DNA from: Psammoneis japonica
Lineage: Eukaryota
Direction of reading: 5' to 3'
Assembly (NCBI GenBank): GCA_008632985.1
Contig: QPGO01000009.1
Span: 310,001-374,000, forward strand
Length of the DNA: 64,000 nucleotides
Shown in pieces: positions 9,131 to 64,000 of this stretch. A program made the position numbers and the translations under genes. Below the pieces are notes generated by a model. That model worked only from the letters and a program-made list of their open reading frames with translations. It was not told where the DNA came from and ran no database searches. Numbering within the stretch: position 1 is the stretch's first letter; each line of letters begins with the position of its first letter.

Positions 9131-10639
9131 TGGATTTGCATGGCGACAACAGCCACTTGACGTCGTATCTGCGTCGTAGTGGTACCACCTACCAAAAGCC
9201 CTCAGCCCTCGGTCGAAATGAGTGGCAAACACCCAGTTCCCAGACCATCGGACCCGACCTTTACATTATTGAGGCGCGTTCAGGATGCATCCAGACCGTC
9301 GGAAGTTGGAGACCACAATGCCAAGACCACGGTTCAGGTGGAACAAAACGTCGTAAGGAAGTAAATAATTTATTTTACTAGAGAGCTAGCGCAGTAACAC
9401 CTCGACGAGAAACTTCCAATTACATCGTCTATTACATCGATTCTGTAGATTGGTGGGTAGACTGTCGCATGCTGGGATGAGCCACATTCTCTTGATTTGC
9501 CGTCATCGCGGGGCCATCGGGATGAGTCGACGGCACAGCCAAGGGGGGGGGAACCTTGAACGTGGTAATGCGGATGTCTTTATGAATAGAAACAAAACAA
9601 AACAGAAGAATTAGAAACAAGCAACAAAAGAAGGAGATTCAAGCAACAAGCACTTACGGCGGCACCCAAACAACGGGAACAAAACCAGGAACAAAGCCAG
9701 GAGCAACAACGGGAATGGTGGGATGCTGTCGTTTCTTCATTTCCTCTTTTCTCTTCCTCTTTACGTTGCTTTGCCTTCCTTCTCTGACAACAAGTGCTGT
9801 TGCACTCTCTCTTCTTTGCTTTCCTCTCCGCTTCCTCTCTTTGGAACTTTAACTTCTGGCAGCAAATGAAAGCTCTCTTCATGAAGGGTCCACACATTTG
9901 CCTTCCCATCCTTTCTGCCATTTGTGCTGTCAACCTGCAATGGTTTTCATGTGCAGAAGCTGCCGCAACAAGATCCTTGCAATCAACAAACCATGAAGCT
10001 CAGTGCTGCACCAAATGTGCAAAAGAGTGCGGGTGGATGATTCCAGCAGCTCTTGTGTTTGGCCATGCACAGCACCTCCTCCAAAGTGACTCCAAGACCC
10101 CATCAGGCACTGCTTCCATCAAGTCTGAGTGATGTGTTGCAGCCACCGCAAGGCCATGATGCAAGTGCTCCTCTTGCTGGGAATCCTGCTGTGGCCCCAA
10201 TTGATGCACCAGCACTCTTGTTGTGATTTCATTGAAAAACTGAAACAAGAATGTTTTTTTTAGGCAGCATTCACTGTTTGGATTCTCTTGTTCAAATTGT
10301 TTGGGAACAAAAGACCCAACTTTGCATTTTTCCACCTTTGCCACCTTTGATGGATGCCAAAGACAGAGGCTTCACTGAAGAAGGAGGTTTGGTGATGCTT
10401 CAACAGAAGCTGGATTTTGACTGCTCTCCCTTGCTCTTGGCAGATGAGTGAGCATCAGATCCAAAAGACAGCATTGTTTTGAATCCCTTCTTTCCTCCCT
10501 TGTCATTGGAGGAGGATTCATGGGACCCCTTCTTTCCTCCCTTGCTCTTGGAAGAAGAGCCTGGGGATTCCTTCTTTCCTCCCTTGCCCTCAAAGGAGGA
10601 TGATCCCTTCTTTCCACCCTTGGATCTGCTCTTGCTCTC

Positions 10640-12613
10640 AGCATTCTGCCACAGAATCTTGAAGCTTTTTGCTCATCATTGCCTTGGCCAACGCATGAGC
10701 CTCATTGTCCTGCAACACTCAACACAAAAGGAAAAGTGAGACCCACCGCCAAATGGAAGAAAGACGTCATGCAAAGGTTGTTCGCAGGCACACTTGCCTC
10801 CTTCTTTTGCTTCTCCTTTCTGCACTTCTTTGCAATCTTCTCATCTTCTTCCTCCTCCATTTCTTTGGCAGCATCGTCACTCTCTTGCTTGTTCTCGCTC
10901 TCTTGTTTTACAGAATTGTCGTCCATGGAAGTGTCCTCTTCATCTGCCAAAGATGCACTGGATTCAACTGCTTGTCCATTCTCAAGGCGATCTGCTTCTT
11001 CTGCGCACGCTGGCTTGCATCCTTCCTCTTCAAATCTGCCCATGGTGACAAATGCGGAGGCAACTTGGCAGCGACTCCACACTTGGCAATGGGCAACAAA
11101 AACATGAAGTTGGCACAATCCACAATCCATTGGGGCTGACGCATTCCCGAGAAGCGGGCAGCTTGTCACAGCTTGACAGCAGCTTGGGACGATCCACAAC
11201 ATGATGTGCAATGGCCGGATCAGAGGCATCTGGAGAACTCTCTGGGCCCTCCCAGCCAACTCGTCCACCAAACAACAGACAAACCAGCTCCACATGTCCC
11301 CCAGGCACTTCCCTCAACAAAAAGAAGATGAGGCCCGCAAACAAGTTCTGTCATTTCTTGGCATCTTCATCGAGGATGACAGAGGCTTTTCCGCCCACGT
11401 TGCTGTTGTTTGCTTGGCAATGCTCTCTAGAGCAGCCTTGAGTGGTGCTCCAATTTCTTCATCATTGTCCTAGTCTTCTGATTCATCTTGACTGTCGTCC
11501 TCATTTGCAAGCTTGTTGAGAGCGACATCCACCATTTGAATGAGCTCCTTGTTCTTTCTCGTTTGTTGCTTGTTGTTTGGCTTGGTCTCCTTTTGCTGTT
11601 GCTGAATGGATTTGCTCACAACCTTGGTGCCAACCACTCCACCGGTTCACGCTGAGTCTAGCGCATTCGTGAGAGACTTGAGATGCAAGGCCAAGACAGA
11701 ACTTGCACTTCCCGGAGCAGATGTTGACTCAGGTTCCGGAGGGTGTTGCACTCGTCCAATGTCATTGCAGAGCTTGAAGAGAACAAAACTCAAGAGTGTT
11801 TCATGAAACTCGAAAAAGGTCAACATGACGCGACAGTCAACATTGGACGGCATGTTTTGTGCAAATGCATGAGGGACAACCCAACGGACACAATTGGGTT
11901 GACTGGCATTTCCACCGACAATGGAAGCTTCAAGGTGCATGCCCTTGACCAACATGAAGGATTTGGTGACACTGCAAGTGGTGGAACAGCAGGCTCCCCA
12001 TGTGGCTGCCAGTGCTTTGCCTTGTTTGTGATCTGCAGTTTGATCCGGCCTTGACTGGGTGGGCTTGCAAACAAGTGCACTGGCATCAAAGCATTGTCCA
12101 GGTCTTCTGGAGCATCCACAAAACGCGGGTGATGTTCACGCACCAAGTGGTGAAGGTCATGCGTTGGAGCGAGGGCGTGACGATGAGCCGCCTCATCCTT
12201 TTCATTCTGACCAGTGGCTTTTCGAACCCACTCTTACAACAAAAATGAGTTGAGCACACGTCAGCAACTCCACAACCATGACTCCCAAAACTTCTCGAGA
12301 ATTGGTTCACAATGTGCAATCACATGAACGTCCTTGATGTGGCAAAGTGGACTTGCCCCTTTTTGTTTCCCGGAGCACGGCCACAAGGTTCTCGGGGGTA
12401 GACAGCCTTGAGGATGCACAAGCGACAGAAATCCTTCAACGACAACTGCAACTTTTTAAGACATGCCGATCTTCCAACAAAGGTGGCATCCAGTCTGGAC
12501 TTGTCCTTTTGCTGCTTCTTTCCCATGCGAGAAAGCTTGTGCTTGCTGCCCATGCCCGAGTGGGCGGCGGCCTTGATGGACTTCTTCACTTTGCCCTTGA
12601 TGCGGTTGCCCAT
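10640..12613 (-). pseudogene. PES1: Pescadillo/Nop7 homolog pseudogene (N-terminal domain and BRCT), heavily mutated
   Basis: [84 protein letters not shown]...QWIVDCAN...LPPHLSPW; AKAMMSKK; many frameshifts. Confidence 0.85.
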
Positions 12614-13399
12614 GATTCAATGCACCTTGGCTGTGATTGTGCGGGAGAGGTTCGTGCACGAGTCATTGCAGATGTTGCTTTCAGCTCTGCAACATTGTCA
12701 AACACTGATTGAATGATGCTTTGGTCCTCGTGATCTTCAAATCTCGCAATCTGATCATTGGAGGTGCAACAGCCAGCTGGAAGTGGCCACTGGCTGCTGA
12801 GAGATGTTGGTGGATGGCAGCAAATGGGTGATGAGCTGTTCACCACTGAAAGGAGTGACAGCCACTCCCTCCAACCTCACCTCTGACAATGCCGCTGTCA
12901 CTCCCTGTGTTGCTCCCACTGGCCAAACTCCTGTCCTCAACCTGAAGCCCTCCTCCACAGAACTCTTCACTTTAATCCTCATGCCCTCAGTGAAGCCCCC
13001 ACACAAAGATCCCCCCTGAAACCAGCACTTCATCCTGCAATGGTCAAAACAAGAGATGGCATCTTGTCCCATGCCGCCACTCAGGAGCAACAAGCCTGTG
13101 CCTTGATTTAAATTGTCCTGACATGGCGCAGTTTCCCAAATCAAAAAACACATGGTTCTCACCAAAGATGAAAAATGAGGCAAAAATGAGTGAGCAAATG
13201 GTTGTGCAACATGTCTGTGCATGAGCTCCACAACAACATGTTGAAGCCTGTGGGCTCGGTGGATTTGAAATGCCCATGATGCCAATGGCAAGAACCTCAT
13301 TGGCGACACCATGTTTTGCTTTTTGATTCCCAAGCAATGTCCAAAAATGAGCACCAGTCAATGCAGCTTGTGTCAATGCAGTGGTTGCACAAATGCACA

Positions 13400-14720
13400 C
13401 TTTCTACAAGATGCATTGAACATGTTTTGAAGGAGACTTTTAAAAAAGATGCAGGTGAAGCAAAAGCAGCCAAAGGTTGCAAATGATGACCCTGAAAACT
13501 CTGAGAGCTGTGACAGCACCATTGGCAAATTGGAGGATCAAATTGGCAGTTGTCAAGAGGAAGCATTTGGCCCCATTTCCAATCACTGTCACAAAGCTTG
13601 AGATGCAGTTGCAGCAACCATCATTTGTGGCAATGTTGATGGTCAAGATCATCCTCATTAAAAATGTCTTTTGGGTGATTGAAAAATGACCCATGCCACC
13701 CAACTCTGTTGTTGGAACAAAATGAAAGTCCCAATGCACCTCAGCTTTTGTTTCAGCAGCATCTAACTGCAAAATGTTGTTCAAAGCATGGCATGTTCAT
13801 TGAAGCATGTTTTGTTTGTGGGGCAGATCTAGATGGGAACAAGGGCACAAAGGTCAAACAAAAGACCTTGTTGACAAGGTTCCACAAACAATCCGGGTCT
13901 TTGTGAAAAAACACCACATTCCAAGTTTGAAAAAGCTGCGTTGCCATCCTCCTCATGTGGCCATTCTTGGGAAAAATCATTGCATCGAAATGCATCTCAC
14001 AAGACATTTGAGTCAATGCCCAACAGCATCTTCATGCCATCTGCTTCTTGCTGCTCCAAGCATCTTCAATCCAAGTTCAACAACCAGTTTCAGGGAGATC
14101 ATTGTGGCACAACTGAATGATGTCCATTGAAGGCAGAGTTTGCAATGTGATGATTGACAGCAAGGCTGAGAAAATTGCCATGCACATCTCTCTGTTTCTT
14201 CTGAGCAAGATGCTGCAATCACAACCCATGCTCACTTGGGGAAGAGTTTGTTGCATGGTTGAAAAACTGTGACATGGACTGCAGCAGACATGGCTTGTGA
14301 TTTGGGGGGTGCACATGTGGGTGTGCCAAACAACATCAATGCACTTTGGCACTGTGATTGTTGTTTGTGTTTGCCCGTGATGCAAAAACATTGTCTTTGA
14401 CCATGCTCTGTTGGAGCACCTGGACACAGCAAAGGAGAGGTTGATGGAGTTGGACCCCACATTGAATTGTTCTCATGCATCATCAAGAAATGCAGTCTCT
14501 GCAACTGTCGCGGGAGCCAGTGATGAAGACAGGAATGTTGGAGCTGGTGCTTTGGTCATGGATGACAACAATTGCACAGTGAAGCACAGTCACTCACAGG
14601 AATGTTTGGGAATGACAGCCAGAGAAGCAAGTGCCAAAAGAACAGTTGGTGACAGGAAACATGCTGTGAGGGAATTCCTTCAAAAGCTGAACCAGGGGGG
14701 GGTGTCATCTGCAAGACCAA
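13400..14720 (+). mobile_element. Degenerate DNA transposase remnant, Sola-like (probably Sola2-type)
   Basis: Frame-hopping translation gives KFNNQFQGDHCG..MSIEG, EQDAAITTHAH, TCGCAKQHQC (~TDGCAKQY) and VGAPGHSKGEVDGV (~GHGKGxVDG) at ~14060-14450. Confidence 0.5.
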
Positions 14721-14929
14721 AATGATGTTCCCAGTTCTTTGGTTGAAGTCCAGTTGTGAGGATTGGTCCAACTGCATCAGTGGCATTGGGGCACTGGTGG
14801 GGCCATGTGCCATTTTACATTGGAGCCCCTTGTTCTTGTTGGTTGGGTTGCCATGCAACTCAATCCTTGCACTTGTGATGGCTGCCCAGCTCAGCTTGGA
14901 TGTCCTTGGGCAAATGGTGTGATCAGAGT

Positions 14930-17900
14930 CCAAGGTCCAAGACTGCAAACCTGCTGGCAGAAGTGACTTCATCATTTGTGGTTTGACACTTTGCTCCAAG
15001 TGTGTTTCTGCCTCTGCACAGAGGCTGCTCTGCCACCACAACTGCAGCCAAACAAGCCACCCAAACTGTGCTCAACCATGTGTTGAGATGCTCTGGGTCA
15101 AGAAAAGTGTGACAAGCAGATGGGAGTGCACATGATTTGGCAGAAGTGAATTTTTCCGCCAACTGACACTTTCGCGCCACACAGTGCTTTTCTGCCCACT
15201 GCCCAGAATTCACACTGACACCACAGTTGCAGGTGAGCAAGCTGCCCAAGCTGTGCCCAACCCTCAAAGCATGTTTCTTGGGACACAAGGAGTGTGCCAA
15301 GAGCAGAAGTGACTCTTTTGCTTTCTGTGGCTTGCTTGACACTTTGCATGCAGGCATTTCTGTCAGCCCAGAGGCTGCTCTGCCACTGCAGCTGCAGTCA
15401 AGCAAGCAACCAAAACTGTGCTTGGCCATTTGATGATGTTTCTTGGCACATGAAGAGCGTGCTCAGTGGCTGAGAGTGCAGAAAATTTGGCAAAAGTATT
15501 TTTTTTGCCCGCTGACACTTTGACATGAGACATCTCTCTGGCTGCTGCTGACACTTTGCTCTGCCATCACAACTGCAGTCAAGCAAGCCCCACAAACTGT
15601 GCTGAACCCTTTGAGGTCATTTCTTGGTGCAGGGAAAGTGTGCTCAGAAGCCAAAACTGCAAATTCATCGGCAGAGGTGACTTTTCATGTGGTTTGACAC
15701 TTTGCCTGCAAAGGTTTGTGCCCACCCAGAGGCTGCTCTGCCACCACAGCCTCTGTCAAGCAAGCCACCCAAACTGTGACAAACCATTTGATGATCTTTC
15801 TTGGGACATGAAAAATGTGCTCAGAAGATGAGAGTGCCAACAATTTGGCAACAGTGGCTGTTTCTGCCAACTCACACTTTCCCACCACACACTGCTTTTC
15901 TGCCTGCTGCAAAGATTCACACTGCCACCACAGTTGCAGTTGAGCAAGCCACCCAAGCTGTGCACAACCCTTCAAGCATGTTTCTTGGGACACAAGGAGT
16001 GTGCTCAGAAACCAAGACTGCAAACACAATGGCTGGCAGAAGTGACTTTTGCTTTCTGTGGCTTGACACTTTGCATGCAGGCATTTCTGCCAGCACAGAG
16101 GCTGCTTTGCAACCAAAGCTGCAGTCAAGCAAGCCACCAAAACTGTGCTCAACCATTTGATGATGTTTCTTGGCACAGGAAGAGTGTGTTCAGTGGCTGA
16201 GGGTGCAGAAAATTTGGCAAAAGCACTTTTTTTGCCTGCTGACACTTTGACACCAGACTTCTCTCTGGCTGCTGCTGACACTTTGCTCTGCCATCACAAC
16301 TGCAGTCAAGTGAGCCCCACAAGCTGTGCTGAACCCTTTGAGGTTATTTCTCAGAACAGGGAAGGTGTGCTCAGCAGCCAAAAACTGCAAATTCATTGGC
16401 AGAGGTAACTTTTTCTGTGGTTTGACACTTTGCAGCCCACCCAGAGGCTGCTCTGCCACAACAGCCTCTGTCAAGCAAGCCACCAAAGCTGTGCTCAAAC
16501 ATTTTATGATCTTTCTTGGGACATGAAAAATGTGCTCAGAAGATGAGAGTGCCAACAATTTGGCAAAAGTGACTTTTCCTGCCAACTGACACTTTCCCAC
16601 AACACACTGCTCATCCTCTGCCTGCTGCCCAGATTTCACACTGCCACCACAGTTGCAGCTGAGCAAGCCACCCAGGCTGTGCCCAACCCTTCAAGCATGT
16701 TTTTTGGGGCTCAAGGCATTTTCTCAGAAGCCAACTTTTACTTTCTGTGGCTTGACACTTTGCCTCCATGGGTTTCTGCCTGCCCAGAGGCTGCTCTGCC
16801 ACCAAAGCTGCAGTCAAGCAAGCTGGCAAAACTGTGCTCAACCATTTGATGATGTTTCTTGGCACATGAAGAGTGTGCTCAGTGGCTGACAGTGCAGACA
16901 ATTTTGGCAGAAGTGACTTTTCTGCAACTGACACTTTGACACCAGACTTCTCTCTGGCTGCAGCTCACACTTTGCTCTGCCACCACAACTGCAGTTTGTG
17001 GAGCCCCACAGACTGTGCTGAGCCCTTTGAGGTTGTTTCTTGGGACATGGAAGAGTGCTCAGAAGCCAAGACTGCAAATTCATTGGCAGTTGTGACTTTT
17101 CCTGAGGTTTGACACTTTGCCTGCAAGGGTTTCTGCCCACCCAGAGGCTGCTCTGCCATCACAGCTGCAATCAAGCAAGCCACCCAAATGGTGCTCAACC
17201 ATTTCAGAAGAAGCCTTTGGACATGAATGGTGTGCTCAGATGCTGGAAGTGAAAACAATTTGGGAGAATTGATGTTTTCTGCCAACTGACATTTTGCCGC
17301 CATCCTTCTTTGTCTTTGTCTGCTGCCCAGATTTTGCTGTGCTGCCACCACTGGAGTTAAACAAGGTCACACAATCTTTGCTTGACCCTTTGAGGTTCAA
17401 CACCAGACTTCTCTGCCTGCTGCTGAAACTTTGCTTTGTTGCCACAGCTGCAGTCAGGCAAGCCCCACAAACTGTGCTGAACTCTTTGCAGCTGTTTCTT
17501 GGGAAATGGAGAGTGTGCTCAGAATCCTTGACTGCAAATGCATTGGCACAAGTGACTTTTCTGTGGTTTGACACTTTCCCTCAAGGAGTTTCTGCCCACC
17601 CAGAGGCTGCTCTGCCACCACAACTGCAGCCAATCAAAGCCACCCAAACTGTGCTCAACCATTTGACAAGATGCTTCTGGACAGGAAAAGTGTGCTCAAA
17701 AGATGAGAATGCAAACAATGTGGCAGAAGTGACTTTTTCTGCCAGCTGACACTTTCCTGCCACACACTGCTTTTCTGCCTGCTGCCCAGATTTCACACTG
17801 CCACCACAGTTGCAGCAGCTGAGCAAGCCACCCAAGCTGTGCCCAATCCTCTGTGCATGTTTCTTGGGACACAAGGAGTGTGCTCAGAAGCCAAGACTGC

Positions 17901-18320
17901 AAACATGTTTGCAGAAGTGACTTTTTTTGTTGTTTGACACTTTGCCTCCAGTTGCCTGTCTGCCCACCCACCAGAGGCTGCTCTGCCACCACAGCTGCAG
18001 CACAGCCAAACAAACCACCCAGTCTGTGATCAACCCTTTGAGCTTGTTTCTTGGGACATTTAGAGTGCACTCAGATGCTGAGAGTGCAAACAGTGTGGTG
18101 GAAGTGACTTTGTTTCTCCTGGCTGACACTTTGCCACCAGGTTTCTTGGCCTCCTGCCCCGATTTGGCTTTTCCACCACAACTGCAGCAGTCAAGCAAGC
18201 CACCCAAACTGTGCTTGCTCCTTTGAGGTCATTTTTTGGGACATGAAGGAAGAATGTGCTCAGAAGTTGTGAGTGCAAAAACATTGGCAGAAGTGACTTT
18301 TTCTGTTGACTCACACTTTT
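14930..18320. repeat. Satellite array, ~175-180 bp monomer (~19 copies) with a ~700-730 bp four-monomer higher-order repeat
   Basis: GACACTTTG...GAGGCTGCTCTGCCACCACAACTGCAGTCAAGCAAGCCACCCAAACTGTGCT...GGCAGAAGTGACTTT recurs; ACTTTGCATGCAGGCATTTC at ~15341 and ~16068. Confidence 0.9.
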
Positions 18321-18378
18321 CCGTGGCACAGTTGGCAGCTGCATTGGGTGGAGTTGAGGTGGTGGCACCTCGGGTTGA

Positions 18379-18831
18379 TCAGCTGGCAACACCGTTGGCT
18401 CCATCCAAAGCAGGAACAACAGCCAGCACAATGGCAGTTGCTGCACCGGATGGCAACAGAGTGGGTGTTGGGGGCAGTGATGGCTGCCTTGTCGGACTGC
18501 TTGCAATGACATGATCTGGTGTGGACAGCGCATCAGTCAGAGGTGGAGTGGGTGCAGGCATCAGAGGTGGCATTGGAGTGGGTGCAGGGAATGGGGAAGC
18601 AACCTGATGTGGTGCTGACAACATGGGCATTGGCATTGGACCTGGTTGAGACAATGGGGTTTTGGGTTGAGCGGTTGGTGACATGGTTGGCACTGGTGCG
18701 GCAACAAATGCATCGGGCGCAGACAGGGCAGGTGTCGGAGGCGGCATCAAACTGGGGGCAGGAGGTGGTGCAGGAAACTTGCCTTGGAGTGGATTTGATT
18801 CAGCAAAATGACTGCACAGCACATTGACCAA
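18379..18831 (-). pseudogene. Pro/Thr-rich (PTxAP-type) coding remnant
   Basis: Low-complexity P/T/A-rich ORF of the kind seen in diatom extracellular protein linkers; lies in the mutated domain. Confidence 0.3.
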
Positions 18832-18859
18832 GAGCTGGCAAACCCGTGATTTTCCTCAT

Positions 18860-19140
18860 CATCGATGGTTGAGCTCCTCACCAACCACTCCATGACATCC
18901 AGCACCATTTCTTCCAAGCCTCGCTGAGACACAAAGAGCAAGCTGGCATCCACACCAAGGTTGCTGGCATGCAATGAATCAAGAGCATGCTCTGCATCCA
19001 CAAGGCAGCAGTTCCTCTGAGCTTTTGAGATTTGGCAATGGCATCTGAGGCAAGTGCACAGTCTTTCCAGAGCCCTCTGACCCACAAATCTCAGCGACAC
19101 GTCCCTTCAGGTGTCCGCCACACAGCACCACATCCAAAAT
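18860..19140 (-). pseudogene. recA: Bacterial-type (organellar) RecA fragment, mutated
   Basis: LDVVLCGGHLKGRVAEICGSEGSGKT (Walker A; EIYG->EICG), then after a frameshift LVDAEHALDSLHASNLGVDASLLFVSQ...WLVRSSTID. Confidence 0.75.
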
Positions 19141-19902
19141 GTGAGAAAAAAGAACACACTCATGCTGAGTTTGCATTGATGCACATCTCTTCAAGTGCTG
19201 CTTGCACCATGCATGCACGCAAGTGAAATGCACTGTGAGTGTTGATGTCCCCCCGTGCCAGTGCAGTCTGCCCTCACATTCTCTGCATTTCCCAACTTCA
19301 TCACAGATCCACACCCACAACTGCGTTCAATCTGATGCAGAGCTCCATCCAGTGTGTCAATTGTTGGCATGTTTTCATTTTGCGTGGGGTGTCACAAAGG
19401 CAGTCATTGAAACAACACAGAGCTGCAACACAGCAACAACATCAGCGCGCCTCTCTCACAACAGGTTCGTCGGCTGCCATGGCTTCTGAAGTGGCCAAGA
19501 GTCCAGCAACAGATGCAGCATTGACCAATCCAGTTTGAGCCACTTTTGCCAGATCAACAATTCCTGGTTTTCACATGGTGCATGTCACAGCACTCAAGAG
19601 TCTGGGCAATGGATCGCCTCTTCAGCATCATGTCTTCTCCTCCGCCACAAATCACAGCTGAGCATCTTCTCTTTTTCTCTTTTCTTTTCTTCTTTTCCTC
19701 TCTCACTTTTCCTTTTCTCCTTTTCAGTTGATTCTTCTGGGCTGCCTCCGGCGGCCACCTCTTTCATTCTTCCCACATGCCAAAATCTCGATGCAGTGTT
19801 GTTGTCAAAGAAGAAGAAGAAAAAAAGAAACCTCTCGCTCTCTCGAACCCTGTGACATTTTCTCCGCAAATAGTAGAAGTACAAACAACACAGAGTGGCT
19901 GG

Positions 19903-26452: not shown

Positions 26453-26534
26453 AACGTGTGTGTTTTGCTCTCGACTGTAGTATCCTTGAGTGCTGCGTTT
26501 TGCAAAGGACCTGTCAAGCAAATCTAACAATTGC

Positions 26535-26982: not shown

Positions 26983-26999
26983 TGTACCGTACTAGTAGC

Positions 27000-27375: not shown

Positions 27376-27422
27376 TTATTGCAGCAGTGGCAAGTGGTAA
27401 ACCCTTTATTATTGTTATTAGG

Positions 27423-29305: not shown

Positions 29306-29308
29306 CCT

Positions 29309-36700: not shown

Positions 36701-37750
36701 CCCTCACCTTTCTCACGCGTGTCCCTGTGCTCCTCCGCTTGACGCTGCAACAGCTTGTCGGTCTCCTCCGCATGTTGCTGGATTGGCTTGTTGGCCACGG
36801 ACATTGTCATCTCTTTGTGAACGCTTTGCAATTGCTTCAACTCAGCAGCATGTTTTTGGCGACGAACACCTTCTAGATCAGCGCGATGCCTCATGAACCC
36901 GGGTCCATCTTTTGCCAGGCAGTGCTCCTTGTATGCCGCCAATCGCTCTGCGCCGGGCTCAGCCGTCTTCTTAGCTGCTTGGCTCTCCTGTTCCCTTTCC
37001 TTCTTTCTCCTGCGCTCTGCGGCTTTTTGACGATTCTTGCTTGTCCTGAATGCCTTCAACCCCATTTCTGAAATCTTTTTGGCTTTGCTCTTCGCCAATT
37101 TGTGGGTGTTGCTCTTGGGAACCATTGTCACTTGTTCTTGTGGGAAAATTGTGGATGACATCCGTGGCACTTGACATCGCAATCGTGGAAGATGGAAGAT
37201 TTTGGGAAAGTTTCCGTTTCATTTTCAAAATGTCCTTCATGAGAGTTTTGAGCCAGACGTGACAACAGGTTCGGGAGTCAACCTGCCGCAGATTTTGATC
37301 CGACCGAACCCACAACACGTTGGATCATCCCCGAAGTTCTCCTTGATGGGTGGCCACAGCAAGCCCAACCCAAGCGCCTGGTGAGCATCCCACAATGACC
37401 ACCACTCGATTTCCCCATTCTTCTCCTCGACCTTCCTCAGCAACAGATGCTCTCGCACCAACAGTTGCGGAAACAACCTCGAGTCCAGACATCGAATCTC
37501 CCAACTTCTTCGGTCCGCAATCCTCACAGCTCACAGCAAAGTCAGCCTCATTTTCTTTTTGTTGGCCCCATGTGTGCTGTGCCGGCAGGACTGCAACACT
37601 GTGTGCACTGGCCAGCTCAACGGCCACATTGTGGGCACATTAAAGAATGCTTTTTATCCAATCATCAAGGATGAAAATTGAAAAATACAAATTCCCAACG
37701 ATTGTGTGCAACCAATGTTTGGTGTGCGACAACTTTCCGTGAGCCACTTG

Positions 37751-37924
37751 TGCAGTGACTCACTTGCACGCTTCTGACACATGGCATTAATTTTGGATGT
37801 CAGATTGACGCAGCCGTTTGAGAGGGCTCGCCAGCACTCGCCAGCGCTTGCTGATGCTTGGGCTCTCCCTCTCTTCAGTCTGCTCACTTCTTTGTTTTGA
37901 CATCAACCTCAGCTTGAGCTTGCA
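37751..37924 (+). repeat. 5' LTR
   Basis: Ungapped alignment to 43023-43196 with 20 mismatches. Confidence 0.95.
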
Positions 37925-40900: not shown

Positions 40901-42900
40901 ATCCTGCGAATGCAACCTCCGGAAAACATCAAGCAGCTTCGTTCGTTCCTTGGCACTGCAACGCATTGTCACAATGTGTGGCCTTGGCGTTCTCACCTGT
41001 TGAAACCCTTGACAGATCTTACAGGCAAAGGCTCATGGACATGGACAACGGAATGTCAGGCGGTGTTCGATGAGATGAAAGCAGTCCCAGCGGCCGAAAC
41101 ATCAATGGCACATCCGAATCACAACAAACCCTTCCACATCTACACCGATGCAAGTGATCACCAGATGGGCGCAGTGATTGCACAGGATGGAAAGCCTGTT
41201 GCACGCTGGTCTCGAAAGCTCAATGCGGCGCAACAAAACCATTCGACAATCGAAAAAAGAACTGTTGGCCATTGTCATGTGCTTCTGAGAACACCGATCA
41301 ATGCTCCTTGGTGGTGACTTGCATGCACTCACTGACCACAAGAACCTTGCCTTTCGCACCTTGAATTCACAGCGCGCACTTCATTGGCGACTCTTTCTGG
41401 AAGACTTTTCTCCTCAGTTTCATCACATTGAAGGCCGATTGAATGTCTTGGCTGATTGCTTTTCTTGTTTACCTCGTGTGGATCCTCCCTCTGAAGGGAA
41501 GAGCTTGGCTCCGGGTGAAGGAGCTGTTGTTGATTTTGCTCCGCTCGATTCGAAGTTGGTGCCGAGTGAGGAACCATCCGAAGTCGAGGATTTCCATGAT
41601 GAGGACTTGGAGCTCGGCACACGCTGATTCAAGTGTTGTTGCAACATTGAAAATGAAGGCCACTCACACTTCTTCTCTTCCGGAACTGTTCGATTCTTTC
41701 TTGAACCACCCTGCGAAGCAAGAGATGCAGAATCCGATGACATTACAATGCATTCAGGAGTGCCAGTTCGAGGACCAACAGTTGAACCAGATGCGCGTTG
41801 CTCACCCTGATCGTTTCCTTGTGGAATGTGTGAACAATTGACTGCTTGTGTGTCATCGCATGCGACCGAATGATCCTCCAGGACAGTGGAAAATCTGTTT
41901 GCCGACTGCGCTCATGCCTGACATCTTGCAGTGGTGTCATCTCGTCCTTGGCCATGCCGGAAGCCAGCGCATGTGTGAAACGATCCAGGCTCATTGTCAT
42001 CATCCAGGGTTGCATCACATGTGTGATGAGTGCTCTTGTGCTGATTGCCAACGCAACAAAACTTTGGGTCCTGGCTGTGGAGAGTCACCCGAGCGAGAAG
42101 CTCCATTAACTCCCTGGTCGGAAGTGGCGGTTGACCTCATTGGCCCGTGGAAAATCAAAGTGCCGAATGGAGAGATTGAGTTTCGGGCATTGACCTGCAT
42201 TGATCCTGTCTCCAATCTTGTTGAACTTGTGAGAATTGAAAACAAAACTGCCCGACATGTTGCCAACCAATTTGAAAACTGCCAGCTTGCATGCCATCCC
42301 AGACCGAATCAATGCATCCACGATGACGGCGGCGAGTTCACTGGGCACGATTTTCAGATGCTGTTGCAACAAGCCGGAATTGATGATGTGACGACTGCTT
42401 CGCACAACCCTCAAGCCAACGCCATTTGCGAACGAATGCACCAGACCATCGGCAATGCATTGCGCACGATCATTGCTTCTGACCCACATCAAAATCTTCA
42501 AGATGCAGCCAGCCTTGTGGACGATGCTTTGGCAACTGCAATGTGCGCAACTCGCTGTGCTGTTTCCCGTTCTTTACAGACTTCACCAGGTGCTGTGGTG
42601 TTCGGACGTGACATGATCCTGGGTGTCCCTGCACTGGCAGACTTGTTGACGATCCAAGGCCATCGCCAGACGCTGGTCAACGACAATTTGCGAAGAGCCA
42701 ATGCCAAGAGAAGATCCTGCGATTGTCAAGTGGGTGATCAAGTTCCAACCAAGTCGGTCGACCTGTCCAGACTCGAGCCTCGTGCTCATGGCCCTCATCC
42801 CATTGTTCAAGTGCACGTGAATGGCACGCTTTTGCTTTGTCAAGCTCCTCATGTGGTTGAGCGCCTCAACATTCGGCGCCTGATTCCTTTTCGTGGTTGA
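37955..42900 (+). pseudogene. gag-pol: gag, protease (VLLDSGG), RT (AHVDD), RNase H (TDAS, TDHKNL), integrase (VAVDLIGP, NPQANAICERMH)
   Basis: ORFs 38139, 39422, 40325, 41301, 41443 and 41848 linked through TGA stops and frameshifts. Confidence 0.92.
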
Positions 42901-43022
42901 TCAGGGGGTTTTCTTCCCAACACCTGGGTTTCCTCCTGCTGTTGTGATTTCTTTGGGTTTTGGTCCCTGGTTTTGGCCCTTTGCATGATCCTCCAGTTCT
43001 CTCGGATCATGGAAGGGAAGAG

Positions 43023-43196
43023 TGCAGCAACTCACTCGCACGCTTCTGATGTGCAGTGTCAATTTTGGACATCAGATTAACGCAGCCGTTTGAGAGGGCT
43101 CGCCAGCACTCGCCAGCGCTCGCTGACGCTTAGGCTCTCCCTCTCTTCGGTCTACTCACTTCTTTGTTTTGACATCAACCTCAGCTTGAGCTTGCA
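43023..43196 (+). repeat. 3' LTR
   Basis: Follows the PPT; followed by the TSD. Confidence 0.95.
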
Positions 43197-58566: not shown

Positions 58567-59511
58567 ATGATGACGTCTCCTGACAGTGAGCATGCAAGGT
58601 TAGCTTGTTGCGATCATGGCGAAAGCGCAGCACTCAAACTTGCAGCTGAGAGCGGCTTTCTGGACACCGTGACGCTGCGCCGTTTGCTTCTGTTCACCAG
58701 CAAAAACCTGATGCACGGCATGTTTGGCAGCAATCCTCATGACGTTTGGCGTTGCTTGTGTGCCAATGAATGGAGCTTGGATGACTTGCAGCTCACCACC
58801 AACTCCATGGGCATGACCATGGAGGAAACTTTCCGGAAGCTTCTGGTGCCTTCTGTTTTGGGAATCAACTCGTGGGCGGGAGAAGAGTTGTCCTTGCTCC
58901 CGCTGAGGTGTTCTCCAGACGATTGTCTGTTTGTTTTTAAGTTTGACTCTACCTCAGATCCAGATGATGATCACACTTTTTATCACAAGGTTGTTCCCGG
59001 CAAAGAGCTCTCACAGTTCTTCACCAAGGGCAAGGCGCGAATGCTCTTTGACGAACCAATTCTAGAAATTGAATGCGATGCAGCATTGTGTGACATCAGT
59101 TGGAGCGCACATTTGCAACTACTTCGCATCCCTGATGGAAAGATCATTGATGATTTTGCACTTTTGGACACTGACAAAAGAGAGGAAGATTGTGAGCAGT
59201 CCCTGTTGTCAAAACCAAACCATCGGAGAAAGACGCTGAGCTGCGACTGTGGATCTCGTCTGATGAAAACTTTCTACCCTGAACACAGTCATCTTCTGTT
59301 TGATGTAGATCTCATTTGTGAAACGGAAGCTGTCAATGAACGGTTGAACAAGGTTGCAGTGTGGGGTTTCAAGCTTCTCACAATGCCGCAGTCAATGGAA
59401 AAAAACATGCACCTTGATCCAGATTCGCTTCTAAAGAACAAGGTGCCTTTTGCTCATTTTTGGAAGCCTTGTCTGCTTGGGACTCGTGATTTTGAGACAT
59501 GGTCGTTTTGA
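58567..59511 (+). CDS. Hypothetical protein with a possible F-box-like N-terminus, Tyr-poor and possibly pseudogenised
   Basis: Open frame; ALKLAAESGFLDTVTLRRLLLFTSK...DVWRCLCANEW; only two Tyr after the Met at 58567. Confidence 0.4.
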   Translation: MMTSPDSEHARLACCDHGESAALKLAAESGFLDTVTLRRLLLFTSKNLMHGMFGSNPHDVWRCLCANEWSLDDLQLTTNSMGMTMEETFRKLLVPSVLGINSWAGEELSLLPLRCSPDDCLFVFKFDSTSDPDDDHTFYHKVVPGKELSQFFTKGKARMLFDEPILEIECDAALCDISWSAHLQLLRIPDGKIIDDFALLDTDKREEDCEQSLLSKPNHRRKTLSCDCGSRLMKTFYPEHSHLLFDVDLICETEAVNERLNKVAVWGFKLLTMPQSMEKNMHLDPDSLLKNKVPFAHFWKPCLLGTRDFETWSF

Positions 59512-61664
59512 TGGAACCACTCTCGAAGGCATCGTGATGAGGATTGGATTGTGAACAAACTGCGTTGTTTGGGATGGTGCCGTTGCTCACCTCAATGCAG
59601 CAAACACACACTGCACTGTTCAAAAAATTGAGCACCATCCCATCTAGGCAGCCGGATGGGATCATGAAGCATTGGCATTGCATCCACATTCATGTCACCG
59701 ACTTCAGCAATCCTTCCGTCTGATGACAAGGAAATGGGCCATCCAAAAATGCTGCACATCGGAGTCAGCCATGCCCTTCAAAGGATCAGAACCTGCCTGA
59801 ATCCATTGGCACCAGCACAACTCAATGATGCCTGTCAACAATTGACCTTCTTCTTAGAATTTGAGTGTCTTTTACAGGGCGCATTAAAGGAATCTACATT
59901 TGATGCAAACAATGTGCACCGAGATTCTCTTTTGAGTCGATCACCAAGGTTCGGCAGGTCTGTTCACATGAGGTTCACAATGGGTGTAAATGCTGCACAA
60001 CAACAAGTTGTGCTGTGCTGGATCATCGCGGATCCAAGGCCCTTCATCATCTCAACACCATTTCGGCTGTGTGTGCCACAAAAAGTTTCAAATTCAATTT
60101 GATGGCAAAAGACGATTTTTGGAACCTGACCACCAAAACAACAGCACAGAGCAAGTGTGTTTGTGCTGGTGGGCCAGGCGATTTATGAAAATTCCTCTTG
60201 TGACTGGAGGCTTTGCATCATTTGGGCAAACACTTCAATGCCACACTGGAGAGTTGACATTTTCATCATTGCAACTGGATGATTGTCACAATTGAGTCAA
60301 CTCATCATGTCATGACTTGTGTCAGAGAGTTTGCGCAGTCAATTTAACCACAGCAGCTTGTTTTAACATCTGTGGGGCATCCAACCATTTTGCCATTGTT
60401 GACTCTGGGGATGACAAGATGCCACATCCCCCAACCCTTTGCCCCTCAACTTTTTGTGGGCACCCAGATTTGCAAGCAGATCCAGGTCATTGGCGGCACT
60501 GTGAGGGACACCCAAAATGTCTTTCCAGCAGCAAATCAAGCGAAGCCCTGAAGTCAAGACAGAGAATCCAAAATGACAGTGCCGTTTCTGATTGGTCATT
60601 TTCATCTCCAGTTTTCTGCCATCAAGAGAGGGCTCATGCTTTTTCAAGAGCTTTCCGTTTTCCTCTTTTCTTGTTTGTTGTTGATCTGTTTTTCGTGCAG
60701 CGCACCTTTGCACTGCAATGTCCAAGTCTCCCACTTTCCACATCAATTTCAACCCACAGTTTTGTGTTTCCAGCACCCTGCTTTCACCTCAACAGCAACA
60801 ACAAATGCCAGGTTGGCTCTTCTTGTCACTTTGTTGACATTGCCAACCAAATCCACAAAGAAAACCTGGAAAATGCCACGTTGCTTGCACCGGAAGAACA
60901 ATCCAAGAATGGGTCTGATCACCTCCCACGTGGACTTGTGTTGAGGCTGTTCTCTCTGGGTGCAATTTGGCAGAAAACAAACTCAACTGCAGATTGAAAA
61001 TTGGGGAAAGAGAACAAGCTGTGCTTGTCTCTGAAAAAAACACCCCAGAAAATGAAAGGCCTGAAAATGGAAAATGATGGTGACCCTCCACCACCTGAAA
61101 GCCAAAGCAATGGAAAATGATGGTGACCCTCCACCACCTGAAAGCCAAAGCAATGGAGGAAAAGCCAAGGAGCCACATCAGAGGCAACAAAGCAAAGGGG
61201 TGCTCACTTGGAAGAGGCAAGGTCTGGGCCACCAAGGAACAACTGGGAACTTGTTTGACATTGTCAGCTGGTCAAAGGCAGTGAAGAGGAGAGGCTGACC
61301 ACAAAGGTGCACTGAAGGAGACAGCTGAAAAAGCAAAAGTTGAGCACTGGGTTGGTGATGAGTCAGACCAAATGCCAGCAAGATCTGTCTTAAATCAAGC
61401 TGCAAGCAACCAGCCCAGGCACTGCAATGGCTCACAACTGGGTGTTGCATTGCCGGTGCAAGAAATTGAGAGTGTGCTTCTTGTTGGTGCAACTGAGTGC
61501 TTCTGCAAGCAAAAAAATCTTGGAAATGATGAGCTCTCTGTGATCAAAGGCACAGAGCAATCAAGAAGCTAGCCACAGTTTCTGCTTGTTTGTCATCAGC
61601 TTTCAAAAACACACTGCCTCTTGCATGTGCCCCATGCATGCACCAGGCGCTGAAAAAGAAGATG

Positions 61665-64000
61665 TGTTACGACTTTGTCGTTGTGAAAATTATGAGCTAG
61701 TTTAGAGTAGAGAAAGTGGGATCGTGCGAATAGGGAATCTTGCCAAATCCCTATTCGTTCGCATTTGGATCGTATTAAATCGATCGTGCGTTCGCATTGT
61801 GGATCGTGCGAATCAAGCCATCACGCGCCATGCACGAGTGATGTCATCGTGTGGAATCACGCTACCATCGTGGGCCAGACGACGGGCCAGTGTGCTTCAC
61901 ACGGACGCTCTCTTAGCATCCTTCTGGAATTGCCTAAGACCTAGAGCCACGCCCTCCTGTGGTCGTGCTTCCCAGGTGCGTGTCAACAATGCTGCGTTGC
62001 CACGCACAAGAGGCTCATGCACGGTCTCGCCGTGTTGTCCAGCAGCGAGGCATGCTGCACACTCCCCCATGATCAGGGCCGTCAAGTGACAGGATGTCTC
62101 ACTGGTGATGGGGTGCAATCTGCCGTAGATTGCACGCATCTGTCAGCACTCCGTTCTGGACACGCAACGTGCCGTTGTCACATGCACGGACAACTCTGGC
62201 GGGTCTTGCACAGCTGTCAGAACTGCATTTAGAGGATTGTTCCTGTTTGACAAGTGCCAATTGCCCTGCGGCACATTGACACTCCTTGCATTTCTGATTT
62301 TCACGCTTGTTGTTTAAGTGGACAAGCTTCTGCTTTCTGGTTTCTATGTGCTTCCACTTGGCATGATGGGCAATGGATGAAACCGCATCGCGTCCGAAGA
62401 CCAATTGCACGGGACTTGCACGCGTGGTCGTGTGTGCCACAGCTCTGGCAGCGAAGGCTGCTGCGGAGAGGATGCCACTCCATGGGTCATCTTTGTCCAG
62501 TTCCACATCCTGCACTGAAAAGGAACGCACCATGTCACCAAGTGTCTGGTGCACACGTTCCACTGTGGCATTTGCCTGTGGACTCCGCTCACTTGTGGGT
62601 TTCTTCAAAATCCCACAGTCATTTTTAATCATCTGGCTGAATTCTGCCACAAATTCTGTCCCACGGTCATGAGCCACCTGGGTTGGCCATGGACATCTGC
62701 ATGGCCACGTTTGTTCCACGACGTTTGCTGCGACGTCTGCGCGTTTCGCAGACACTTCTTTAATCTCGAACCACCCGGTTGCTGGGTCAATCATTGTAAC
62801 TGCCCACAATTGCAAGGTGTCCTTTCCGCGTCTTTGAATTTTATGTGGCCCTGTCACATCTGTGCACAGAGTCTCCCATGGAATTGTCTCTGCAACCTTT
62901 TCTGGTGGCTTCCCATGACGCTGCGTTCGGCGTTTTGTCTTCTGGCATCGACCGCACTTGACGCACGTAGAATGCACCGTAGACCTCACACCAGGCCAAC
63001 AGAAGTGCTGGGCAACAGACATTTCCGTGCGTGTCTCACCTGGATGACACAGTGTCTCGTGGTGCCATTCAGTTAGCGGAACCTGCAATGACTGTGGTGC
63101 TGCGATTTTGTCCTTGTGACAGACCAACTGTCGTGATGACCCTCCCCCACGATGCGCGCGAATGGAGCAGTCGGACAAGTCCTCAGCTCTTGAGAGCAGG
63201 CGCTTGTCCTTTTGTTGTGCTTTTTGAATGCGCTTGAAGCTGACAGGCAGAGACAGCTCATCTTGCGCGTCTGCATTAAAAGCTTCATGCAAAGGACGAC
63301 TCGATGGAGTGTCTTTTGCATCTGGATTAGCTTCGGAAGGCAAGCTGGGTGCCAGTCGAAGGCGACTGAGAGCGTCAGCGACCAGGTCATGGGTGCCCTT
63401 AACACAGCGTGATTCGGGACCGCATTCTTTGCATGTTGACCGCCAGCGCATGACGCGCTCGGCATTGAATGCTTTGCACGTAAGATTTTTATGATCAGTG
63501 TGTGTAATTGTACGATGACCAAGGAGAATCGTTCGAAATTCTTTCAATGTCTCCACAATGGCAAGCAATTCTCTCTCCGTTGTTGCACAATTTAATTGCG
63601 CACTGTTGAGCTTTCTGCTGTAAAAGGCGACAGGTTTGTCATCTTGGGACACAACTGCTCCCAATTGACATTTAGAGGCATCGGCACGCATCTCAAAGGG
63701 TTTGTTAAAATCAGGATGTGATGACAAAACATCTTCCGACATCACCCGTTTAACAGTTTCGAACGCCTCGTCTTCAACGGACGTCCACTGCCACTTAACA
63801 GTCTCGCTTGCGAGTCGTGTCAGTGGAGCCAAGACTTCAGAACGTCTAATCCATGTGTCGCGGCAGCAGTTCACCATGCCAACAAATGAACATAGGTCGC
63901 GTTCATTGGCTGGGGTCGCGATTCGCTCAATGGCGTCGACTTTGTTGGGTGTTGGTCGCATTCCGTCTCTGTTGACCAGATGACCCAAGTGTTCTAATTG
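61665..64000 (-). mobile_element. Second Ty3/Gypsy element, 3' part: RT end, RNase H, integrase, PPT and putative 3' LTR (62061-61665)
   Basis: ORF 62099..63988 (DASK, PVAFYSRKL, TDHKNL, HETLCHPG, SPQANATVERVH); minus-strand PPT GGGGGAG at 62068-62062 followed by TG; candidate terminal ..TAACA at 61665. Confidence 0.88.

Follow-up and report, generated by a model that had tools for sequence, protein, structure and literature searches.

Probable TpA-erasing hypermutation of transposons and dead gene copies at three loci of the diatom Psammoneis japonica

Introduction

Fungal RIP is a context-dependent mutational process that changes C:G to T:A at CpA and so creates TpA. It is triggered by duplication, mutates every copy longer than a few hundred bases, depends on an enzyme of the RID/DNMT4 type, and acts before meiosis. 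Many diatoms possess a DNMT4 that is related to fungal RID and is without known function (PMC9998398).

A pattern in which TpA is removed rather than made has so far been reported only in one 2026 preprint, on the unrelated alga Bigelowiella natans, where TpA hypermutation affects integrated viral DNA (Mettrop et al., bioRxiv 10.64898/2026.01.13.699255). According to the preprint, two integrated viral regions accounted for 231 of 302 new mutations, and all but one of the mutations in these regions were A→G/T→C changes, each of them at TpA. The rate exceeded the genomic one about 1000-fold, and activity was episodic among mutation-accumulation lines. The long-term signature consists of lowered TpA with raised CpA and TpG in clustered 1-kb windows, and reverse-transcriptase and DDE domains are over-represented in the coding sequences that show it. 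The suggested agent is an ADAT2 homologue; the natural tRNA substrate of TadA/ADAT2 enzymes carries a U before the edited A (Discussion of the preprint and general knowledge). In the part of the text that was available, the preprint states no flanking-base preference.

The DNA analysed here, referred to as the window, is a stretch of 64 kb from P. japonica. A sequence-only reading of it had proposed repeat-directed hypermutation of TpA and was aware of no such system described in diatoms. For diatoms this statement stands, as no TpA-erasing hypermutation was found in the literature searched, although the same signature is described in the B. natans preprint.

Loss of TpA in three delimited domains

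Three domains of the window are nearly devoid of TA: D1 (9851-19871), D2 (34896-43196) and D3 (58602-64000), with observed/expected ratios (o/e) of 0.04, 0.07 and 0.17, respectively, versus 0.58 for the rest of the window. Measured in 1-kb windows, TA o/e is 0.01-0.13 over 10001-20000, 0.03-0.11 over 35001-43000 and 0.04-0.28 over 59001-64000, and lies between 0.34 and 0.83 in every other 1-kb window. TA counts are 23 versus 409 expected in D1 (Poisson P 1e-140), 39 versus 339 in D2 (P 2e-95) and 59 versus 220 in D3 (P 3e-38), the expectation being the background density of a gene-rich window from which the original elements may have differed in composition. Domain boundaries were placed by long gaps without TA. 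The final normal TA on the left side lies at 9850, 34895 and 58601, and normal density returns from 19871 after D1 and from 43228 after D2, within 32 bp of the end of the 3′ LTR (43196). The limits of the process lie no more than tens of bases from the ends of elements.

TG and CA are raised jointly in all three domains, with TG o/e of 1.79, 1.58 and 1.57 in D1, D2 and D3 (background 1.15) and CA o/e of 1.73, 1.42 and 1.58 (background 1.16). CpG is lost as well, CG o/e being 0.20, 0.76 and 0.62 versus a background of 1.02. Loss of CpG and loss of TA are uncoupled in degree, as D2 combines a CG o/e of 0.76 with a TA o/e of 0.07. The CpG loss is a point that the earlier reading had stressed little.

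The contents of the domains (Table 1) are Gypsy elements in two of them and pseudogene copies with repeats in the third; no viral genes were seen in the three domains. The pescadillo pseudogene of D1 bears His or Cys at conserved Tyr positions and Cys or His at Arg, and includes the peptide VDCRVMLTFFEFHETL at 11794-11841 (−). The RecA fragment reads ALDSLH in place of the RecA motif ALDPIY, with EICG at 19081-19092 (−). Pfam matches at 39371-42897 (+) in D2 follow the Ty3/Gypsy order protease, RT, RNase H, integrase and are flanked by direct LTRs. This element contains the peptide AHVDD at 40700-40714 (+), and its integrase ORF (352 aa) has no Tyr, 20 Cys and 20 His. The peptide MVNCCRD of the D3 element lies at 63857-63877 (−). 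All ten peptide strings quoted in the sequence-only reading are present where it implied them. Its description of three stripped domains with normal neighbours is borne out by the 1-kb ratios and Poisson counts, and the sharp limits and the Gypsy and pseudogene content agree with its view of a process restricted to separate domains with transposons and ectopic gene copies.

Table 1. Features of the three TA-depleted domains (positions in the window)
Feature	Position	Strand	Remarks
Domain D1	9851..19871	.	Dead host-gene copies in a mosaic with repeats; TA o/e 0.04, CG o/e 0.20
Pescadillo pseudogene, near full length	10876..12613	-	Frameshifts and stops
Pescadillo_N	11650-12233	-	Pfam
Old tandem array in D1, period about 181/358 bp	14937..18322	.	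Likewise stripped of TA
RecA pseudogene fragment	18750..19326	-	Pfam RecA match 18750-19106
Cpn60/GroEL C-terminus remnant	19445..19570	-	Directly upstream of RecA fragment
D2 left block, TA-stripped	34896..37749	.	Without recognisable protein family
Gypsy 5′ LTR	37750..37924	+	
Gypsy internal region	38127..42897	+	Gag-like ORF, protease, RT/RNase H, integrase
Gypsy 3′ LTR	43022..43196	+	
D3 left block, TA-poor	58602..62101	.	Without recognisable protein family
Second Ty3/Gypsy element	62102..64000	-	RNase H and integrase (Pfam); cut by window end

Direction, sequence context and timing of the change

The direction of change is from TA to TG/CA. It follows from relatives with Tyr and normal TA, and from a less-mutated paralogue that retains TA and CG. 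Among 51 codon rows with Tyr in at least 60% of relatives (a few rows being duplicated by overlapping frameshift alignments), the window has Cys in 21, His in 17, Trp in 3, Tyr in 2 and another residue in 8. The 38 rows with Cys or His agree with the earlier claim that conserved Tyr codons are so altered; the further claim of Tyr→Arg (CGY) found support in 0 of the 51 rows, and the sole motif cited for it, PVARWSRKL, is not resolvable. In the D3 Gypsy element, 18 consensus Tyr positions are represented by 1 Tyr, 10 Cys and 5 His, and other residues are retained (Trp 11/11, Phe 13/14, Pro 19/20); TA loss also predicts the further changes seen, 11 of Ile→Val and 6 of Val→Ala. All 13 metagenome relatives have a TA o/e of 0.57-1.02, and the possibility that active relatives already carry Cys or His at these motifs is answered by the Tyr of relatives at these positions. 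A paralogous contig of about 60x was compared with the window over 10832-11033, and 20 sites differ: the contig retains TA at 6 of them and CG at 7, the window showing TG or CA at each, while 1 site runs the opposite way and 6 are other changes. At both conserved Tyr codons of this stretch of pescadillo the contig encodes Tyr and the window Cys. These direction counts agree with the earlier assertion that the process runs opposite to fungal RIP.

The context is strictly TpA and not WA, since AA is undepleted in the domains (o/e 1.25-1.29 versus a background of 1.17) and AG is not raised (1.09, 0.83 and 0.91 in D1, D2 and D3 versus 0.97); AA, AC, AT and GA are all near background. The WA→WG hotspot of Pol eta takes in ApA as well as TpA. 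The undepleted AA and unraised AG accordingly argue against Pol eta-type mutagenesis, one of the agents suggested at the outset. Both strands are affected about equally, with TG:CA counts of 1098:1101 in D1, 834:702 in D2 and 543:520 in D3, and with Cys:His at consensus Tyr of 21:17. These dinucleotide and Tyr counts accord with the proposed A→G change in TpA context on both strands.

Survival relative to background is 0.04 for TAT, 0.08 for TAC, 0.14 for TAG and 0.26 for TAA. The process seems to prefer TAY > TAG > TAA, a rough ranking because the expected TA comes from a gene-rich background that is perhaps unlike the original elements. TTAA is scarcely depleted (27 seen, estimated survival 0.84) and is not immune, at least 3 sites having been changed. 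Any effect of the preceding base at Tyr codons was not significant (pyrimidine before, 14 Cys and 7 His; purine before, 7 and 10; Fisher p = 0.19).

Comparison of the two D2 LTRs bears on timing. Over 175 aligned bases they differ at 20 positions, every one at TA or CG sites. The differences form 14 events, namely 6 TG/CA doubles, 4 of CG type and 4 of TA type, with no other transitions and no transversions. For the TG/CA doubles, an ancestral CG instead of TA is possible in principle. As the LTRs differ at TA and CG sites only, the change was made in DNA once the element had integrated. TA sites of the LTR pair had reached saturation before a single ordinary substitution occurred in 175 aligned bases, and the TpA rate therefore far exceeds that of ordinary substitution. 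A short repeat within D2 (35500-35604) has a copy about 370 bp past the 3′ LTR end (43570-43679) that retains TA and CG; of the 13 positions that differ, 5 carry TA and 4 carry CG outside the domain against TG or CA inside, and none shows the reverse.

Targeting

The notion of a repeat-directed process aimed at duplicates was not supported. The intact parental copy of pescadillo retains TA, as do background duplicates with normal TA, a 950-bp pair (90.5% identity) and a 430-bp pair (88%), and both observations argue against duplicate pairing as the trigger. Normal TA is likewise seen in a short repeat of high depth near 20150-20520, and the short repeat of D2 is mutated in its inside copy but not in the one past the 3′ LTR. 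It may instead be the locus or its chromatin state, such as a CpG-methylated silent state, that marks a target, and not repetition alone.

Mechanism and alternative explanations

The findings probably reflect a real process acting on chromosomal DNA, with TpA→TpG/CpA change at three loci and CpG decay beside it, and of the same kind as the TpA hypermutation of B. natans. A→G change on either strand has turned nearly every TpA of three delimited loci into TpG or CpA, with ordinary CpG→TpG/CpA decay alongside. Tyr codons would be destroyed, and TAA and TAG stops removed at the same time. The outcome would be the irreversible inactivation of transposons and of ectopic or foreign DNA. The likeliest chemistry would be the conversion of DNA adenine to hypoxanthine through deamination by an enzyme of the TadA/ADAT2 type, as suggested by the Discussion of the preprint (bioRxiv 10.64898/2026.01.13.699255) and by general knowledge. 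A modified base is another candidate agent.

The same TpA mutation might also arise without a dedicated adenine deaminase, as a by-product of silent chromatin, which we regard as improbable. One route would be TET/JBP-type oxidation of thymine (5-methyluracil) beside 5-methylcytosine to 5hmU or 5fU, which would pair with G and give T→C; another would be error-prone repair in methylated heterochromatin. 5fU is mutagenic, and 5hmU in dinoflagellates prefers TpA. The decay of CpG in all three domains and between the LTRs, where 4 of 14 events are of CG type, suggests that the domains are probably CpG-methylated. Each of the two changes would also switch the pyrimidine in a YpR dinucleotide that is self-complementary, and targeting appears tied to the locus rather than the sequence. 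Yet in D2 the loss of CpG does not keep pace with that of TA, and repair of the WA type is unsupported.

RNA-level A-to-I editing of retrotransposon transcripts by an ADAR- or ADAT-like enzyme, fixed by reverse transcription, has very little chance of being correct. A 5′ U preference is typical of RNA adenosine deaminases (Discussion of bioRxiv 10.64898/2026.01.13.699255), and LTR retrotransposons occupy two of the three domains. Such editing predicts changes confined to the transcribed strand and common to both LTRs, and it is already contradicted by the LTR comparison: LTRs are identical at integration, and this pair differs only at TA and CG, often with opposite products (TG versus CA). Moreover, the strands are equally affected, the limits match the ends of DNA elements with LTRs included, and TA loss extends to a non-coding tandem array, to unclassified blocks and to gene pseudocopies.

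Read evidence bears on whether the bases themselves are correct. It comes at contig level from Logan contigs, assembled from runs of one sample that is probably the source of the assembly and hence not independent. A contig of 2124 bases with a depth of 55.4 crosses the D1 boundary (8910-11032) and differs from the window at 8 letters; single-copy background contigs have depths of 54-57. The concern that short reads would show TA at these sites was addressed in this way, the sequencing-run contigs (about 55x) carrying the bases of the window. Assemblies from JGI/IMG, Logan and ENA also yielded Tyr-free Gypsy pol ORFs with Cys or His at Tyr columns, three among 149 representatives and two among 120 relatives. 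These ORFs may belong to the same species.

Miscalls linked to methylation are known in nanopore data, and the library type of the one sample, perhaps the assembly's own source, is not recorded; a modified heterochromatin base miscalled over a true TA is nevertheless very unlikely, because the contigs of about 55x give one consistent base per site over 2.1 kb of boundary where a strand-dependent miscall would mix calls and break contigs, the pseudogenes bear frameshifts, stops and ordinary substitutions too, Tyr-free relatives occur in assemblies of three other sources, and the same spectrum was obtained from Illumina NovaSeq mutation-accumulation lines of B. natans (bioRxiv 10.64898/2026.01.13.699255).

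Comparison with known systems

Like fungal RIP, the diatom process consists of dinucleotide-specific transitions on both strands, is restricted to DNA that is mobile or duplicated, and ruins coding capacity for good. RIP makes TpA from CpA/TpG, however, whereas the diatom process removes it, and the duplication trigger of RIP does not apply to the pescadillo parent or the 950-bp and 430-bp duplicates, which keep their TA. ADAR/ADAT and APOBEC enzymes offer a second likeness, that of deaminase-like, context-specific hypermutation against mobile or viral nucleic acid, and adenosine deaminases share the 5′ U/T preference. These enzymes act on RNA or single-stranded intermediates of reverse transcription, with strand-biased changes common to both LTRs; here the changes are strand-symmetric and post-integration. 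Deamination of 5-methylcytosine in methylated transposons is the second component of the pattern (CG o/e 0.20-0.76, and the LTR and paralogue differences) and is incapable of removing TpA.

The closest parallel is B. natans, with A→G/T→C at TpA, both products (TpG and CpA), and discrete foreign or mobile regions as targets. B. natans is a chlorarachniophyte (Rhizaria), whereas the present host is a diatom, on another branch of the supergroup. According to the preprint, B. natans shows mild depletion (rho TpA 0.45 in the NCLDV region) and a rate that was measured directly; in the diatom only the end state is seen, and it is near saturation (0.04-0.17). LTR retrotransposons and dead host-gene copies take the place of viral regions as targets, and in the diatom the process ends no more than tens of bases from an LTR end, with CpG decay alongside. 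We tentatively suggest that diatoms and chlorarachniophytes might share an old defence enzyme, common to stramenopiles, alveolates and rhizarians (SAR), that recognises silenced or foreign DNA with near-base-pair precision and deaminates the adenine of TpA in double-stranded DNA (TAY > TAG > TAA). If so, a DNA adenine base editor would exist in nature as the mirror image of fungal RIP, erasing all Tyr codons and leaving reading frames open.

Three TA-stripped domains

The erasure of TA from parts of this sequence is real and striking. The three domains noticed in the sequence-only reading, here delimited as D1 (9851-19871), D2 (34896-43196) and D3 (58602-64000), are confirmed as TA-stripped both by observed/expected ratios (o/e) in 1-kb windows and by TA counts. 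TA o/e is 0.01-0.13 over 10001-20000, 0.03-0.11 over 35001-43000 and 0.04-0.28 over 59001-64000, as against 0.34-0.83 in each remaining 1-kb window. D1, D2 and D3 hold 23, 39 and 59 TA dinucleotides, where the TA density of the gene-rich remainder of the window predicts 409, 339 and 220 (Poisson P for the deficit 1e-140, 2e-95 and 3e-38).

The domain limits are sharp. The final normal TA lies at 9850 for D1, 34895 for D2 and 58601 for D3; dense TA resumes from 19871 and from 43228, the latter 32 bp beyond the 3′ long terminal repeat (LTR) of the retrotransposon in D2, and D3 extends to the window end. One contig homologous to D1 turns into unrelated TA- and CG-rich sequence left of 9869, a break 19 bp from the final normal TA.

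The loss of TA is accompanied by a gain of TG (o/e up to 1.57-1.79 in the domains versus 1.15 in the background) and of CA (up to 1.42-1.73 versus 1.16). CG is depleted as well (0.20 in D1, 0.76 in D2 and 0.62 in D3 versus 1.02), and CpG decay thus runs parallel to TpA loss. Stop triplets in the domains are nearly all TGA (in D1, 478 TGA with 22 TAA and 13 TAG), and because TGA is nearly the sole stop triplet remaining, many long open frames result. All ten peptide strings quoted in the sequence-only reading are found in the window.

Contents of the domains

Between the LTRs of the D2 element are a gag-like ORF, a protease, a reverse transcriptase/RNase H and an integrase. D3 also carries an unclassified block alongside its Gypsy element, and D1 contains no recognisable transposon gene. 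Read-through scans against Pfam in six frames found no family above threshold in 34896-37753, 58602-62104, 12614-14940 or 9851-10878, and a three-frame scan of 18320-19872 returned only RecA again.

Features of the window and their positions
Feature	Position	Strand	Location	Remarks
Pescadillo pseudogene	12613-10876	-	D1	near-full-length; frameshifts and stops
Tandem array	14937-18322		D1	period ~181/358 bp
RecA fragment	18750-19326	-	D1	
Cpn60/GroEL C-terminal remnant	19445-19570	-	D1	E 4.6e-7 to solved chaperonin 60
Unclassified block	34896-37749		D2	left of Gypsy element
Ty3/Gypsy element	LTRs 37750-37924, 43022-43196	+	D2	complete
Second Gypsy element	62102 to window end	-	D3	
DUF1350 protein	1776-3188		background	normal dinucleotides
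Glutathione S-transferase	30625-31254		background	normal dinucleotides
Myosin head	46563-49399		background	two long frames; normal dinucleotides
FG-GAP repeat protein	51215-52606		background	normal dinucleotides
KRR1	53152-54075		background	normal dinucleotides

Copies within the tandem array are only 64-79% alike and many transversions apart, so that the array is old and yields no clean mutational spectrum; it is TA- and CG-stripped like the remainder of D1. The Cpn60/GroEL remnant and the RecA fragment share a strand, with the remnant immediately upstream; this bacterial-type pair is arranged tail to head and could represent a segment of foreign or organellar DNA instead of nuclear gene copies. 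The block at 12615-14939 has a contig depth of 750-850, which suggests ~15 copies, and gives a weak zf-DNL match in a forward frame (E 8e-4; 19.7 bits against a cut-off of 27). A 425-codon open frame at 58234-59508 (+), without a family match, begins in normal sequence and continues past 58602 into D3; this may be a genuine gene interrupted by D3, or the frame may have arisen by accident through stop loss.

Direction of change

Four independent lines of evidence (codons, relatives, a paralogue and an internal repeat) agree that the change ran from TA to TG or CA. Among 51 codon rows with Tyr in at least 60% of relatives, a few of them duplicated by frameshift alignments, the window reads Cys in 21, His in 17, Trp in 3, Tyr in 2 and another residue in 8. 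Replacement of conserved Tyr by Cys and His is thus as the sequence-only reading described, and the Arg that it also listed occurs in none of these rows. At 377 positions of the D3 element the relatives share a consensus; among these, Tyr persists at 1 of 18 (10 Cys, 5 His), as against Trp at 11 of 11, Phe at 13 of 14, Pro at 19 of 20 and Arg at 24 of 27. Further frequent changes are Ile to Val (11), Val to Ala (6), Ile to Thr (4) and Leu to Ser (4), the expected products of TA to TG/CA changes within or across codons.

It had been allowed that active relatives of these elements might already carry Cys or His at these motifs. The relatives prove to be Tyr-bearing and TA-normal: median Tyr content is 3.0% (n = 120) and 3.5% (n = 149) in the two sets of protein relatives, and TA o/e is 0.57-1.02 at 13 metagenome loci. 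The integrase ORF of the window (352 residues) has no Tyr, 20 Cys and 20 His.

A second, less-mutated pescadillo sequence is present among sequencing-run contigs at a depth of ~60, versus ~55 for the window's own sequence. At the 20 sites where the two differ within 10832-11033, this paralogous contig has TA at 6 and CG at 7 where the window has TG or CA; the remainder comprise one CG-type difference in the opposite direction and six other changes. Two conserved Tyr codons in this interval are Tyr in the paralogous contig and Cys in the window. Since it retains TA, CG and both conserved Tyr, the paralogous contig represents an intact pescadillo gene or nearly so. Likewise, a short repeat within D2 (35500-35604) has a copy outside the domain (43570-43679), ~370 bp past the 3′ LTR end, and the two disagree at 13 positions. 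TG or CA in the D2 copy corresponds to TA in the outer copy at 5 of these and to CG at 4, and the reverse is never seen.

Action on integrated DNA

The LTRs of one retrotransposon are identical at insertion. Those of the D2 Gypsy element now differ at 20 positions in 175 aligned bases, comprising 6 adjacent TG-versus-CA doubles, 4 TA-versus-TG/CA and 4 CG-versus-TG/CA differences, with no transversions and no other transitions. Each LTR was therefore mutated separately, often to opposite products, and its TA sites came near saturation before any ordinary substitution accrued. Both strands are targeted about equally, as shown by TG:CA counts of 1098:1101 in D1, 834:702 in D2 and 543:520 in D3, and by the 21:17 ratio of Cys to His at consensus-Tyr rows, which bear out the claim of A to G change at TpA on both strands. 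The substrate of the process is DNA that has already integrated.

Several alternatives are weighed by these data. A sequencing artefact is an unlikely source of the signature. If a modified base were miscalled depending on the strand, each site would give mixed calls and contigs would break, yet a continuous 2124-base contig of depth 55.4 (background contigs, 54-57) matches 8910-11032, over the D1 boundary, apart from 8 letters and one gap. This agreement is support rather than proof, because the runs come from one sample, possibly the assembly's own source, and their library type is unrecorded. Gypsy pol ORFs lacking Tyr entirely or almost entirely were also found in public JGI/IMG and Logan assemblies (proteins P0275, P0293 and P0385 among 149 representatives; P0190 and P0141 among 120 relatives), with Cys or His at conserved Tyr columns. 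By these protein sequences the signature also exists outside the window, and the evidence is independent of the sample's platform. Milder Tyr-poor cases are P0365 (JGI/IMG) and P0329 (ENA).

Editing of the transposon transcript before integration is excluded as the main route by strand symmetry and the separately mutated LTRs. Intrinsic TA poverty of the elements is ruled out by the TA-normal relatives, the LTR pair and the paralogous copies, and GC-biased gene conversion by its lack of dinucleotide specificity and the concurrent loss of CpG.

Sequence context of the mutated sites

The o/e ratios of AA, AC, AT and GA in the domains are close to background. As ApA is undepleted, the motif is strictly TpA and not WA, a distinction raised in the sequence-only reading. 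TA survival relative to background depends on the 3′ base (TAT 0.04, TAC 0.08, TAG 0.14, TAA 0.26), and among tetranucleotides ranges from 0 for ATAT and 0.02 for GTAC to 0.30 for CTAG and 0.84 for TTAA. A one-flank hazard model (T >= C > G >> A after the target A), hand-fitted to tetranucleotide survival, reproduces five of six mixed contexts; by symmetry, the complementary base before T fits equally well. Tyr codons lean to the 3′ base non-significantly (Fisher p = 0.19), and of the six TA sites that the paralogue polarises, five changed from TAC to TGC on the hit strand. Tables of product tetranucleotides (NTGN) are too noisy to rank contexts. The ranking of survival (TAT and TAC below TAG, below TAA) is provisional, because the expected counts derive from the gene-rich background.

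Three cases of mutated TTAA indicate sites that are slow rather than immune. The palindrome TCTAGA recurs in 5 of 118 surviving TA sites of D1-D3 (e.g. 11428, 13830, 35281, 36874, 59063); this recurrence and the near-undepletion of TTAA are attributed, short of proof, to flanking-base preference. Blocking of A to G change by a 5′ T is ruled out, as T precedes 4 of 21 Cys and 3 of 17 His outcomes, and so is protection by a methylated CpG after TA (survival of TACG 0.115 versus TACA 0.118).

Targeting and mechanism

The proposal that mutation is repeat-directed is not supported. Two background duplicate pairs have normal TA: a 950-bp pair (25895-26844 and 29309-30266; 90.5% identity) with 65 differences, including 19 transversions, 19 other transitions, 11 CG-type, 14 TA-type and one double, and a 430-bp pair (26999-27429 and 31920-32349; 88% identity) with 34 differences (10 transversions, 6 other transitions, 13 TA-type, 5 CG-type). 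The TA-type share (14/65 and 13/34) may point to a weaker bias of this kind across the genome. A short repeat at ~20150-20520, directly beside D1, has a contig depth of at least 250, hence many copies, and is TA-normal. The functional, parental pescadillo paralogue is spared, as is the outside copy of the D2 short repeat. The targeting mark would then belong to the locus or element, perhaps as a silent state with CpG methylation, rather than to a family of sequences.

The chemistry is most readily envisaged as adenine deamination, and the process would serve in defence against mobile or ectopic DNA. The main rival is that thymine is oxidised in silent chromatin, and this would take the place of adenine deamination as the source of the changes. 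No natural enzyme is known to turn A:T pairs of a defined dinucleotide into G:C in chromosomal DNA, and such an enzyme would interest the base-editing field. CRISPR/Cas9 knockout has been reported in Phaeodactylum tricornutum (PMC9998398, in the portion available); some diatoms are transformable and gene-editable, and therefore the enzyme and the targeting signal are directly testable. In such genomes, open frames free of TA and Tyr will lead gene prediction and the dating of transposons astray.

Comparison with known systems

A full-text literature search returned no report of TpA loss or A to G hypermutation in diatoms, and a TpA-loss process is absent from the available portions of PMC12730594 and PMC12344493. 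The sequence-only reading knew of no described system of this kind in diatoms, which holds within that search. The same TpA signature is described in a chlorarachniophyte, Bigelowiella natans, from mutation-accumulation lines (Mettrop et al., bioRxiv 10.64898/2026.01.13.699255). According to the available preprint text, 231 of 302 new single-nucleotide mutations fell within two integrated viral regions, and all but one of these were A to G or T to C, every such change on TpA. Only some lines acquired the mutations, and the rate came to ~6e-7 per site per generation. The B. natans genome has 124 clusters of TpA-depleted windows, and reverse-transcriptase and DDE domains are over-represented in its TpA-poor coding sequences. 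An adenine deaminase resembling ADAT2 is the agent proposed by the authors, who liken the process to RIP. DNMT4, a relative of fungal RID with unknown function, is present in many diatoms (Hoguin et al. 2023, PMC9998398, in the portion available) and is no more than a lead here.

The KRR1 protein of the window has 64-67% identity to those of the pennate diatoms Seminavis, Nitzschia and Cylindrotheca and up to 78% to transcriptome proteins, and pescadillo relatives include Thalassiosira profunda; the window is diatom DNA and not from Bigelowiella. If active here, a mutator first reported in 2026 would have a second, independent and ecologically dominant lineage, and the phenomenon would look less like a single-alga curiosity and more like a genome defence widespread among eukaryotes. 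The preprint text available is silent on several points that the window supplies: mutation reaches saturation, occurs after integration and stops at element ends, the functional parental gene is spared, CpG decays alongside, and there is a provisional flanking-base preference. The process in the window is of the same kind as the B. natans hypermutation, here in a diatom, and differs in being saturated and in lying on LTR retrotransposons and dead gene copies.
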